A stretch of DNA of 28,280 nucleotides. Origin: a virus. The notes beneath the pieces are model-generated. The model saw only the letters and a list, made by a program, of their open reading frames with translations, ran no database searches and was not told the origin of the DNA. Positions 5,485-25,668 of this stretch are shown here, piece after piece. Position 1 is the stretch's first letter, and each line of letters opens with the position of its first letter. A program made the position numbers and the translations under genes. The stretch is taken from the UHGV virus genome UHGV-0263858. One strand, written 5' to 3'.

Positions 5485-6169
5485 GTAGTGCTTCCCTTAG
5501 TGATGAGAGATTATCGCCGACGAACAGAGTCACAGCTGTAAAAACCCACTCGGGGTGTGGGATGTTTTTTTGTATCAGCACTGCAGCCTGATTAAGGGCT
5601 CCTTTGTAGCAAAAGCGCCACACCGGGCAAAATTTTTGCCGGAGTGCGGCCTGCTGATCAGCGATTTCCTGTAAGGCTTTATCTCTCGCATTCATGAACT
5701 GATGCAGTGATGATGACAATGTTTCCGGTGATGTGGCGGCAGGAGTGGCAGCCTGTGCAATGGTTTCCGCCAGCGACATGCTGCGAGTGGTCTGTGTCGA
5801 CAGCATTATCGGTTCCGGAAGTGATGTTACCGGTCTGGCGGGGATTTGCATTCTGCTGATGGCCAGTGAAAGCTGGCTGGAGATCATGCGGGACATTCGT
5901 CCCACCTCTGGCAACGGAAATGCGCCTGAAAATTGCCTGGAGAGTGATAAAAACTCGCCAGCAGAAGGGGCACAAAACAACAGCGCCACAATGTCTTTTT
6001 CTGTGCTTTCTTTCAGGTAGGGTAAAAGTGCAGATACAGCATTTTCGGGGCTGAGATAACGCCCCGATGGTTTGATGTTTCCGGTATTTTCTGACCATGG
6101 ATGAAGGCAAACCACAGAACACTTAATGTTCATGGCTGACGGGCGCAGAATTGCCTTTTCCCATTTCAT
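5456..6169 (-). CDS. hypothetical phage protein (237 aa)
   Basis: ATG at 6169 with SD GGAGAG and ATGA overlap with the upstream gene. Family not recognised. Confidence 0.55.
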   Translation of the reverse strand: MKWEKAILRPSAMNIKCSVVCLHPWSENTGNIKPSGRYLSPENAVSALLPYLKESTEKDIVALLFCAPSAGEFLSLSRQFSGAFPLPEVGRMSRMISSQLSLAISRMQIPARPVTSLPEPIMLSTQTTRSMSLAETIAQAATPAATSPETLSSSLHQFMNARDKALQEIADQQAALRQKFCPVWRFCYKGALNQAAVLIQKNIPHPEWVFTAVTLFVGDNLSSLREALHDPDDCPCA

Positions 6170-6741
6170 TCTGACTCTCCAGCCTGAAAAGCGCGGATGT
6201 CGGCAAGATTATTAAGGCTATCCAGCACGTCCTTCATCTGTCGCTGACGGCGATAAATCCCGTCGTTGCGATCAGTCTGCGCCCGGGCCATCGCGGCTGC
6301 CAGCTCCTGAAGCTGCGCCATTGTCAGTGTGACAAGGTTATTTGCTGCATCCCCCCATCCCAGCGTTGACCGCGTACCTACAACCTTTGCAGCCATTGCC
6401 GCGGGCGCAATACGACTTATTGAGTCTGCACCACCATTCCAGGTGTGTCCGTTCCATTCGAACGTGAACGGCTGCGCTTCCTGTTCTGTGCGCCATGCTT
6501 CAATTTCTCGTTTTTTAGCGTCCTTTGCTGCTGCGATAAGTTCAGGTGATGCGGTGAACGGGGTTATCTCGCCCCATTTGCCGCTCTGCAGTTCCTGCCA
6601 GATGTGCTGGCCGGTTTTCGCTGTATCGTCTGGCGTGGCTGTGTAGGGAAGTGGGTCTTCCATTCCCTCAAACAGCACGTCGCAGTCAATCGCACCGGAT
6701 TCGGTATAACGGGGACTGGTAATCTCTTTTATCTGCATCAT
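6166..6741 (-). CDS. hypothetical phage protein (191 aa), possibly a fibre-associated chaperone or a tail tube
   Basis: ATG-ATG start at 6741 with SD GAGGG and ATGA overlap with the upstream gene. The C-terminal half (FEWNGHTWNGG...YRRQRQMKDVL) loosely resembles tail fibre assembly-type C-termini. Weak call. Confidence 0.5.
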   Translation of the reverse strand: MMQIKEITSPRYTESGAIDCDVLFEGMEDPLPYTATPDDTAKTGQHIWQELQSGKWGEITPFTASPELIAAAKDAKKREIEAWRTEQEAQPFTFEWNGHTWNGGADSISRIAPAAMAAKVVGTRSTLGWGDAANNLVTLTMAQLQELAAAMARAQTDRNDGIYRRQRQMKDVLDSLNNLADIRAFQAGESE

Positions 6742-23421: not shown

Positions 23422-23697
23422 TCACCTCAACAATGGAAAGATTTTTGTGACGTTCCCGCGTGCGCGTATCACCAGCACGCAGAACAACAGATTAAAAAAC
23501 ACTTCCAGCCAGCCCGTTGCTAACGGGCGACCACACAGATAGCTGAGGGGCGCAAAGGCATACAGCAGTATCAGCAGCCAGGCCATCCATGACACCAGCG
23601 GTTTATGTCTGGAATCACGGCGACGATAAAAAAAGAGCGTCAGCACGATAATCGTGCATAACGCCACATTCAGCAATCCGGGAAGGTTACTTAACAT
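23422..23697 (-). CDS. membrane protein with three predicted TM segments (holin or antiholin candidate)
   Basis: Start at ATG 23697 with strong SD GGAGGAGG. 91 aa, three hydrophobic segments. Sits between the holin-like and endolysin genes. Confidence 0.55.
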   Translation of the reverse strand: MLSNLPGLLNVALCTIIVLTLFFYRRRDSRHKPLVSWMAWLLILLYAFAPLSYLCGRPLATGWLEVFFNLLFCVLVIRARGNVTKIFPLLR

Positions 23698-24079
23698 TGC
23701 CGCCTCCTCCACCCCGCAGGCGGGAGAACAAGCCGGACACCAGTGATGCGATATCCTGCTGGTGGATGAACGACAGAATCTTCACCGACACCACCGCCAC
23801 CAGCACCGCACACAGTGCATCCGCAGATGTACCGTCATAACCTGTTTTTGATGCAATCCAGGCTGACAGCACATGCGCACCCAGCACGCCAACGATAAAC
23901 GACACCAGAAAATGCGCCGCCACACGCCAGGCTGAAAGCGCCTGCGGCATCGTTGCCACAAATAACGCCCCGGCGAACGCCCCAAACACAATCCCGAAAT
24001 CCGTTCCGGTAAACAGCCCGAATACCGTCGCCCCGCCGAGCGCCGCAGCCGTACCGGAACCGGACAAGGGTTCAGACAT
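23687..24079 (-). CDS. holin-like membrane protein (Gly/Ala-rich TM segments)
   Basis: Start at ATG 24079 (MSEPLSGSG, SD GGAGAAAAAG), not the ORF-track start at 24229. 130 aa with three or four TM segments; first gene of the lysis cassette. Confidence 0.55.
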   Translation of the reverse strand: MSEPLSGSGTAAALGGATVFGLFTGTDFGIVFGAFAGALFVATMPQALSAWRVAAHFLVSFIVGVLGAHVLSAWIASKTGYDGTSADALCAVLVAVVSVKILSFIHQQDIASLVSGLFSRLRGGGGGNVK

Positions 24080-24096
24080 ACTTTTTCTCCTGTAAA

Positions 24097-24128
24097 TAAA
24101 AAAGGGCCACCAGCGGCCCATAAAAAAA
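24097..24128. terminator. hairpin (GGGCC-ACCAGC-GGCCC) flanked by A-run and T-run, immediately upstream of the holin-like gene
   Basis: Read directly. On the minus strand the hairpin is followed by TTTTTTATTT and then the holin SD. Confidence 0.45.
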
Positions 24129-24167
24129 CACCCGTCAAAGGCACCCACAGATACCTTTTGTGTGGTG

Positions 24168-24320
24168 TTATTCAGATTTACGCAGTAAAGGCCAGAGTAC
24201 GGCCAACGCCATCGCCACCAGCACACCATCTGCCAGCACCGACATCAGCCGTCCGGTGAAATCCACCGCCACTACCAGAAACAGCAGGACGGCAGCCAGC
24301 ACAAGGCGCGCACTTTTCAC
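24168..24320 (-). CDS. putative small two-TM protein (50 aa), GTG start overlapping the TerB-like stop
   Basis: Manual translation VKSARLVLAAVLLFLVVAVDFTGRLMSVLADGVLVAMALAVLWPLLRKSE with GTGA overlap. Could instead be a non-coding leader. Confidence 0.3.
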   Translation of the reverse strand: MKSARLVLAAVLLFLVVAVDFTGRLMSVLADGVLVAMALAVLWPLLRKSE

Positions 24321-24742
24321 AGGTACTGCTCCAGCGGCAACTGCAGCGCCTGAGCAATTTTCTTGAGCTGCGCTTCTTCATCCGGACCAATGCCGTCCTG
24401 GTCAGCAATATCGAGACACAGGCACAGCACATCAACCGCTTCGGCGGTTCCTGCCACATCAGCCAGTTCACGTAAAGCCTGAGCATTCGCACTACGAGGT
24501 GACGCTTCATAACGGGCGCGGATATTTGCACTCATTTGTGCAATCTCACCGGAGAACGGCGCAAAGGCAGGAAGTGCTGCAATGGTTTTTTCCAGTACAG
24601 CGATTTCTTTCGCATCACAGGTGTCGTCGGCGAATGCTATGGAATACGCGCCCCAGACGGTCGCCTCCACTGCGTCGCGGTTCTCCATCTTCTTAACTTC
24701 GGTAATGGCCTTGCGGGTTTTCTTTTTGAAAATACCAAACAT
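24317..24742 (-). CDS. TerB-like (tellurite-resistance TerB family) protein
   Basis: Start at ATG 24742 (MFGIFKK, SD AAGGAAAA). 141 aa; the architecture and C-terminal DGIGPDEEAQLKKIAQALQL resemble TerB (DGNFDDDEKSAVREIARSLGF). Confidence 0.5.
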   Translation of the reverse strand: MFGIFKKKTRKAITEVKKMENRDAVEATVWGAYSIAFADDTCDAKEIAVLEKTIAALPAFAPFSGEIAQMSANIRARYEASPRSANAQALRELADVAGTAEAVDVLCLCLDIADQDGIGPDEEAQLKKIAQALQLPLEQYL

Positions 24743-24880
24743 CGTGACTTTTCCTTTTAGTGGGTGAGCCTCGCCCCGGGATGAGCAGCCCACAGAGAAA
24801 GTCACACTGACCATCCCGTAAGCTCACCCCTGAAAGGCTCTGTGGTTTTTTTGATGTGCGCCGGGCGTGGCGCGGAAATA

Positions 24881-24903
24881 AAAAAGGCCCGCCGTAGCGA
24901 GCC
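24881..24903 (-). terminator. intrinsic terminator (first of a tandem pair downstream of the tRNA cluster)
   Basis: Minus-strand stem GGCTCGC / GCGGGCC with one G-U pair and loop TACG, followed by TTTTTT. Confidence 0.45.
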
Positions 24904-24925
24904 GCATAAATACTGAATTCTGAAT

Positions 24926-24950
24926 AAAAAAAAACCGCCTGGCGTGGCGG
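24926..24950 (-). terminator. intrinsic terminator (second of the tandem pair)
   Basis: Minus-strand hairpin CCGCC-ACGCCA-GGCGG followed by T9. Confidence 0.6.
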
Positions 24951-25110
24951 TCTATGGCATAAAATGGCATGAAGAGAACGCGATGATTTTATTATGACCA
25001 GAGACGTCGGATATCTTCCGATGCATATACTTCTGAATGGACACTATCGTTTTCCGCTCATGGATTTTTTTAATCTATCTTCGCATCGACGAGTACTCCT
25101 GGGTATTATT

Positions 25111-25191
25111 TACAATACCGGAATGGTGCATCATCGGCCCCGCAAGGAAACATAAAAACCTCTGACGATAATGCACCATTCCAATACTGTA
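25111..25191. repeat. long inverted repeat (perfect 12-bp core GGAATGGTGCAT / ATGCACCATTCC, imperfect extension to about 20 bp)
   Basis: Core arms at 25120-25131 and 25171-25182, read directly; flanked by TACTGTAA direct repeats (25191-25220). Confidence 0.5.
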
Positions 25192-25308
25192 AAAATGGCA
25201 CCGGTACTGTAATCACATCTTCATATTACAGAACAGGACGGGTTAAATCGTTAGGGTAAACGTCCCACCAATAAAGTGCGGTGCCTAAAAACAGTTTAAC
25301 ACTTTCGC

Positions 25309-25383
<75 letters not shown>

Positions 25384-25499
25384 ATCCTGGAACTCGGCTA
25401 CCTGATTTTCATTCTGCACTGAATATCGAGAGAAGCTCTCTTTATTCGAGCCGGTAAGCGAACTTATCGTCTCGGGCTACGCCATCGCGTGGCCGAAAT

Positions 25500-25584
<85 letters not shown>

Positions 25585-25592
25585 GGACTTGA

Positions 25593-25668
<76 letters not shown>

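Follow-up and report, generated by a model that had tools for sequence, protein, structure and literature searches.

The tciA–tciB gene pair of a phiP27-like prophage: genes for a TerB-fold protein and a small two-TM protein in a cargo slot, behind a conserved structured leader RNA

Membrane-tethered TerB proteins include DjlA, which joins an N-terminal TM segment to a TerB-like domain. TerB itself, from the terZABCDE(F) cluster (PDB 2JXU, PF05099), has been reported to be membrane-associated and to be a partner of the membrane protein TerC (PMC11003894; bioRxiv 10.1101/2022.05.11.491447). The defence systems Shango and Bunzi also contain TerB domains, the Bunzi TerB protein having TM helices, and a role in membrane surveillance has been put forward for the TM-linked TerB proteins of such systems (bioRxiv 10.1101/2022.05.11.491447). 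In phage P1 the genes tciA, tciB and tciC (Lobocka et al. 2004 annotation) lie in that order, the stop of tciA overlapping the start of tciB; their transcripts are present during lytic P1vir infection (bioRxiv 10.64898/2025.12.28.696737), and P1 preparations have yielded TciA peptides in mass spectrometry (PMC9024508). No plaque defect followed the CRISPRi knock-down of P1 tciA, tciB and tciC, showing that these genes are non-essential (PMC10695390), so that under laboratory conditions the phage can do without whatever role they have in the lytic cycle. We found no functional test of TciA or TciB in the literature, and no report of a tellurite-resistance test for TciA.

The window analyzed here is a stretch of 28,280 nt from the virus genome UHGV-0263858, with a pair of overlapping small genes on its minus strand (Table 1). 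Judged from its sequence, this pair is the prophage form of P1 tciA–tciB, carried by a phiP27-like lambdoid prophage of E. coli. The pair is already known: its names go back to the annotation of the P1 genome, Pfam and PHROG families exist for both products, and RefSeq lists it. Positions 24080-24960 match the E. coli STEC005 chromosome with 100% DNA identity, and the products are labelled there by RefSeq as “tellurite resistance TerB family protein” and “DUF3927 family protein”; the annotation of phage JLK-2012 uses the names tciA and tciB, and in O157:H7 prophages this cassette stands behind tRNA-Ile and tRNA-Arg. By megablast, a match was found in 509 of 5426 complete E. coli genomes, with at least 80% of the cassette in 164. 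The window and P1 agree in gene order and in the overlap, and in both cases phage tRNA genes and a DNA methyltransferase gene lie upstream on the same strand. They differ in four respects: tciC, encoding a 35-aa single-TM peptide, is present in P1 and absent here (tblastn with P1 TciC matched only the P1-type loci L001 and L091); tciB starts with GTG in GTGA here and with ATG in TGATG in P1; the pair stands in a lambdoid late operon beside holins here and in the C1-controlled ban operon in P1; and a structured leader is present here and absent from P1. The order methyltransferase, tRNAs, tciA–tciB is common to this lambdoid prophage and to the unrelated P1 (dmt, trnA/trnT, tciABC; L001).

Table 1. 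Features of the tciA–tciB locus in the window, and further copies of the leader in other loci
Feature	Position	Strand	Remarks
N6-adenine methyltransferase gene	26878-25835		upstream of tRNAs
Promoter-like site	25757-25730		ahead of tRNAs; good site in consensus scan
Phage tRNA cluster	25309..25668	-	Gly-TCC, Tyr-GTA, Thr-TGT; upstream of cassette
Terminator-like hairpin and T-run	24932..24953	-	first of two 5' of cassette; terminator scan, sequence read
Second intrinsic terminator	24886..24903	-	GGCTCGCTACGGCGGGCC + TTTTTTATTT; abuts leader 5' end; terminator scan
5' leader of tciA	24743..24873	-	conserved, structured; ~130 nt from second terminator to tciA ATG
Leader hairpin H0	24873-24858	-	small, at 5' end of leader
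Leader helix P0	24837-24833 with 24757-24753	-	CCUUU with AAAGG of tciA Shine-Dalgarno
Leader helix P1	24829-24822 with 24769-24762	-	GGGUGAGC with GCUCACCC
Leader helix P2	24818-24807 with 24788-24777	-	variable apical hairpin
Possible leader pseudoknot	24845-24838 with 24797-24790	-	CCACAGAG with CUCUGUGG; P2 loop to 5' flank
tciA	24317..24742	-	141-aa TerB-family protein; ATG 24742, TGA 24319-24317
Stop/start overlap GTGA	24317..24320	-	tciA TGA and tciB GTG share 4 nt; sequence read
tciB	24168..24320	-	50-aa two-TM DUF3927 protein; GTG 24320, TAA 24170-24168
Intrinsic terminator	24094..24119	-	GGGCCGCTGGTGGCCC + TTTTTTATTT; hairpin 24119-24104 and T-run; between tciB and holin RBS
First holin	23687..24079	-	Phage_holin_8, 4.7e-23
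Second holin	23712-23422		Phage_holin_3_7; after first holin
M15 endolysin	23425-23042		after second holin
Further leader copy, L099	2387-2512		
Further leader copy, L038	5102-5242		
Further leader copy, L002	3928-3789	-	
Further leader copy, L086	5485-5603		

Both ORFs are real, with family matches well beyond chance. The original prediction, made from the letters of the window, had described the first as a 141-aa TerB-like protein, and the profile searches agree: TciA matches Pfam TerB (PF05099) in two stretches with 26.6 bits against a gathering cut-off of 24.4 (E=7.8e-6), a small margin obtained with a single sequence, and it matches PHROG 632 (“tellurite resistance”) at 7.5e-64. A single-sequence phmmer comparison of TciA with the solved TerB gave no match, the pairwise similarity being too low; a profile built from 49 TciA-subfamily sequences matches the TerB structure 2JXU_A with E=2.9e-24, positions 9-142 of the profile aligning with 15-149 of the chain. 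TciA and TerB are thus homologous over nearly the full length and belong to one all-helical fold class, and they share paired acidic motifs, a D-G...E in either half, with D39, G40, E46, E66, G117 and E122 at least 90% conserved in the TciA-subfamily alignment. These results show that TciA is a full-length TerB-fold protein. Its first 22 residues form a cationic N-terminal helix with a net charge of +6, and the remainder, the acidic TerB domain, has a net charge of -12. TciA is 86% identical to its P1 counterpart across all 141 residues and 84-99% identical across genera, and the dN/dS of tciA relative to the window (Nei-Gojobori) is 0.02-0.08 in all comparisons except the most divergent. Some databases call a 165-aa version (entries P0128, P0140 and P0172) that takes in the region 24743-24814 (minus strand); we rejected this ORF, which begins at an in-frame upstream ATG (24814) that lies inside the leader hairpin and has no Shine-Dalgarno, and which carries non-triplet indels among relatives. 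The true start of tciA is that of the 141-aa form.

The stop of tciA overlaps the start of the 50-aa frame, as had been claimed, in a GTGA at 24320-24317, preceded by a GGAG 8 nt 5' of the GTG. This overlap is a translational-coupling junction, by which tciB is presumably translated in amounts matched to those of TciA. TciB matches Pfam DUF3927 (PF13064) at 6.7e-16 (58.5 bits against 25; residues 4-48 on positions 4-48 of a 53-position profile) and PHROG 1470 (“TciB-like”) at 5.7e-25, and its matches are limited to these two families, with no holin family among them; it is 53% identical to P1 TciB. The two predicted TMs were recovered by hydropathy as hydrophobic segments at ~4-21 and ~25-46, flanked by K2/R5 and R47/K48, a charge pattern that fits a hairpin with both ends in the cytoplasm (N-in/C-in) and would place D20 and D31, membrane-embedded by hydropathy, near the periplasmic side. 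The core motif VDFT..(L/M)MS.LADGVLV is conserved and the second helix is variable.

To follow the pairing, we collected 80 viral-contig and 13 genome loci with relatives of TciA. A TciB homologue lies immediately after TciA in every locus with downstream sequence, out of 96 loci in all, and tciB is intact and overlaps tciA in ~95, mostly by GTGA and, in the P1-type, Rosenbergiella and Scandinavium lineages, by TAATG or TGATG with an ATG start. Seven distinct loci encode a TciA of only 31-40% identity, and four of them have an overlapping 46-56-aa ORF with two helices and the same S/A-D-G/A motif, one of these being recognised by Pfam as DUF3927; the TciA homologues that keep such a partner are 34-40% identical. 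The TciB-like ORF is absent from the other three distant loci, so that TciA can exist alone. The dN/dS of tciB (Nei-Gojobori against the window) is 0.17-0.57 in 14 of 15 comparisons, including pairs at dS 1-2.5, and the ORF stays intact at saturated synonymous divergence (dS>1, up to >2). Owing to the kept pairing, the dN/dS below 1 at high dS and the retention in distant loci, we consider tciB to be a selected coding gene. The original prediction had left room for the 50-aa frame being an untranslated leader. The frame might also be read as a mere untranslated 3' spacer between tciA and the holin, given its GTG start, its tiny product and our failure to find proteomic evidence for TciB itself; this reading is contradicted by an intact ORF with a conserved start position in ~90 loci, by the ATG found at the same overlap in other lineages, by the dN/dS values, by the Pfam match and by the motif-bearing ORF retained beside TciA homologues of 34-40% identity, and is effectively refuted by conservation.

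Several individual loci depart from the common arrangement. In L020, L029, L030, L033 and L060, tciB is truncated or altered in frame beside an intact tciA, homology stopping after residues 24-41, and insertions of 0.7-1 kb separate tciB and the holin in L021, L030, L033 and L079. One protein of a public assembly, P0181 (196 aa), fuses a P1-type TciA and TciB in a single ORF (Pfam TerB and DUF3927), both parts being readable as one chain; the fusion comes from a shift at the stop/start overlap, probably a frameshift or a sequencing error. In L106 and L107, apparently from a virulent phage, a distant TciA-like TerB protein lacks TciB and adjoins ProQ and NAD-salvage genes. In another prophage, L099, a TciA-like gene stands in tandem with a second, weaker TerB-like gene, downstream of a Q-type antiterminator.

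The pair had been placed directly upstream of the holin, where lambdoid phages put moron genes, and this placing is supported: the Phage_holin_8 gene begins at 24079, and the slot between tRNAs and holin is occupied by other cargo in related prophages and by stx2e in phiP27, which has the same gene order of methyltransferase, tRNAs, cargo, holin, holin and M15 endolysin. The gap between tciB and the holin is 88 nt long and contains the terminator that marks the 3' boundary of the cassette. In phiP27 (L097 ~6074-6215, corresponding to window 24094-24262), the 3' half of tciB is kept, beginning with the D-F-T codons and running through the stop, together with this terminator, immediately downstream of stx2e. 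Such a remnant implies that toxin and tciAB cassettes replace each other here, and it suggests that in phiP27 tciA and the 5' portion of tciB gave way to the toxin cassette; the tciAB cassette in the Shiga toxin gene slot and the phiP27 remnant are together a record of cargo exchange. The stx genes have their own promoters in addition to Q-dependent expression. Unlike the stx2e of phiP27, the cargo here is not a toxin, and the consensus scan found no promoter of its own. Within the tRNA cluster, tRNA-Tyr (window 25500-25584, minus strand) looks like a local insertion or variant, as the otherwise identical STEC005 region is annotated with Gly and Thr only. Between tRNA-Gly and the first terminator, ~350 nt (24960-25308, minus strand) are non-coding, with no ORF of note; the lone Rfam match in this interval, to mir-580, is spurious (27 bits against a gathering score of 83).

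A crude consensus scan detected no sigma-70-like promoter between the terminator at 24886 and tciA at 24742, and, as is typical of morons, the cassette has a downstream terminator. Given terminators on both sides and no detected promoter, we infer late, antiterminator-dependent expression instead of classic moron expression: tciAB would be transcribed during lytic growth, which in lambdoid phages would mean by Q-modified polymerase, rather than from a repressed prophage. Of the two upstream terminators, the first probably ends transcripts of the tRNA cluster; expression in the lysogen could come about by leaky read-through from the tRNA promoter or from a non-canonical promoter. The terminator 3' of Q immediately precedes the cassette in Klebsiella phage 1 LV-2017, as does the terminator 3' of the tRNAs in Evi and JLK-2012, a homologous terminator-leader junction being present in all three phages. 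In P1, tciABC lies on the ban strand between the C1-operator-controlled, C1-repressed ban promoter P1ban and ban. The methyltransferase-tRNA-tci genes of P1 and, it would appear, those of the window prophage thus sit alike in lytic-cycle transcription units. As this holds for two unrelated phage types and the other ter genes are absent (none in any locus examined; at the window locus the neighbours are tRNAs, methyltransferase, holins and endolysin, with no terC, terD, terE or terZ), the label “tellurite resistance” is very likely misleading.

Based on these observations, we propose that tciA–tciB is a dispensable accessory module of late, coupled expression in which TciB serves as membrane anchor or partner of TciA, a model to which we assign a probability of about 0.55. 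The genes would be read only by terminator-resistant (Q-modified) RNA polymerase in the late transcript, in parallel to the P1 ban unit, and coupling of tciB to tciA translation would match the amounts of the two proteins. TciB would insert into the inner membrane as an N-in/C-in hairpin and would dock or recruit TciA, bringing the cationic N-terminal helix and the acidic, cation-binding-type TerB domain to the cytoplasmic face. TciA–TciB would then be a split analogue of the TerB–TerC association and of membrane-tethered TerB domains: the placing of a TerB domain at the cytoplasmic face of the inner membrane, proposed for TciA–TciB, is the concept common to DjlA and Bunzi, whereas here the TM and TerB parts are separate coupled polypeptides without a J-domain or effector domain, and the proposed membrane partner is a 50-aa hairpin rather than a multi-pass TerC. 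The module might condition the inner membrane in lytic growth, acting on its ion, PMF or envelope-stress state or on the exclusion of incoming phage or colicin, and would not be a tellurite-resistance determinant. With the link of TciA to a selected 50-aa protein holding down to ~35% identity, a TciA–TciB complex becomes a concrete hypothesis for a TerB-family protein.

The gene name points elsewhere, namely to a lysogenic-conversion moron by which the repressed prophage would confer tellurite, pore-forming-colicin or phage resistance, like the Ter phenotypes (Te-r, PacB, Phi). Such a function would suit the TerB homology of TciA, the position of the cassette in the phiP27 stx2e cargo slot, insulated by terminators, its wide distribution in E. 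coli prophages (1292 of 5426 complete genomes, or 24%, contain the leader, with 1-6 copies each) and the part that TerB domains play in Shango and Bunzi. We nevertheless hold it to be unlikely: the consensus scan shows no promoter-like site between the upstream terminator and tciA, the P1 copies lie within the C1-repressed ban transcription unit, the genes for TerC, TerD, TerE and TerZ are not nearby, the ter constructs of one study having carried at least terBCDEF (PMC11003894), and no PADLOC defence model is matched by the pair. A different function is suggested by the neighbourhood, since in most lambdoid loci the cassette lies directly 5' of two holin genes: TciB, a small two-TM protein that resembles many holins and antiholins in size and topology class and is apparently co-expressed late with the holins, might act together with TciA on the adjacent holins like an antiholin, or stabilise the membrane potential, so as to delay or sharpen triggering. 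That the P1 cassette is unlinked to lysis genes, that other genes intervene in JLK-2012 and O157:H7 prophages, that TciB has no holin-family match and that the pair is kept beside unrelated holin types make such a regulator of lysis timing rather improbable.

Two further readings seem less probable still. TciB, very short and hydrophobic, could be a toxic membrane peptide, inhibiting division or growth for host takeover, that TciA modulates or neutralises; strict translational coupling might reflect the need for a fixed stoichiometry, tciB is truncated beside intact tciA in the loci listed above, and the P1 annotation carries “inhibition of cell division” by homology. This label comes solely from ter-operon phenotypes, however, we found no experimental hint of toxicity, and the conserved polar motif with its two acidic residues resembles a binding or ion site more than a pore-forming toxin, so that we regard toxicity as very unlikely. 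Equally hard to credit is an anti-defence decoy, a phage TerB mimic that disturbs TerB-containing membrane-surveillance systems or the ter stress response of the host: anti-phage systems do contain TerB domains, the conservation of TciA from host to host is unusually high and its expression seems to fall in the lytic phase, but the idea is purely speculative, and a comparison of TciA and TciB with the PADLOC families, which include the Shango and Bunzi models, gave no match at E<=0.1.

The only part of the finding that may be new is the leader RNA, which always begins right after a terminator. Its conservation exceeds that of the synonymous sites of tciA, and folding gives an MFE of -55.2 kcal/mol (z=-2.65), with P0, P1 and P2 stacked into one long hairpin with interruptions; these three helices are supported by covariation. 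When 22 distinct leaders are aligned with MAFFT, paired cells make up 92%, compared with 39-51% when the partners are slid, and eight leader pairs show changes on both sides compared with 1-4 in the slid controls. A covariance model made from this alignment also has a match of 60 bits ahead of a gene whose TciA product is only 40% identical, and identifies leader paralogues that lie after the lysis cassette, 5' of unrelated late accessory genes encoding a KilA-N protein, an antirepressor-like protein and a 246-aa protein; in these paralogues the sequences of helices P1 and P2 differ and the pairing is kept. With the paralogues included, 17 of 25 pairs changed on both sides compared with 6-11 in slid controls, a value reached by none of 500 shuffles, in an alignment that is fitted to the model and so leans toward the structure by construction. 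The possible pseudoknot covaries (GAGAG/CUCUC, GAAAG/CUUUC, CACAA/UUGUG) and is statistically weak per sequence. No Rfam 15 family matched the leader at E<=1.

Pairing of helix P0 with the Shine-Dalgarno makes the leader a candidate for sequestering the tciA RBS in the modelled fold, and it might serve as a translational gate, as a site of RNase III processing or as a 5' stabiliser. One may tentatively go further and see in the leader an undescribed class of cis-acting phage RNA, whose task would be to gate the translation of cargo mRNAs cut from the late or tRNA transcript, or else to direct their RNase III-type processing or their stabilisation, with TciA–TciB as a lytic-phase membrane module and not a resistance gene; as a whole this combined reading is possible but on balance doubtful. 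In either case, about one complete E. coli genome in four contains this leader, a candidate new structured RNA.
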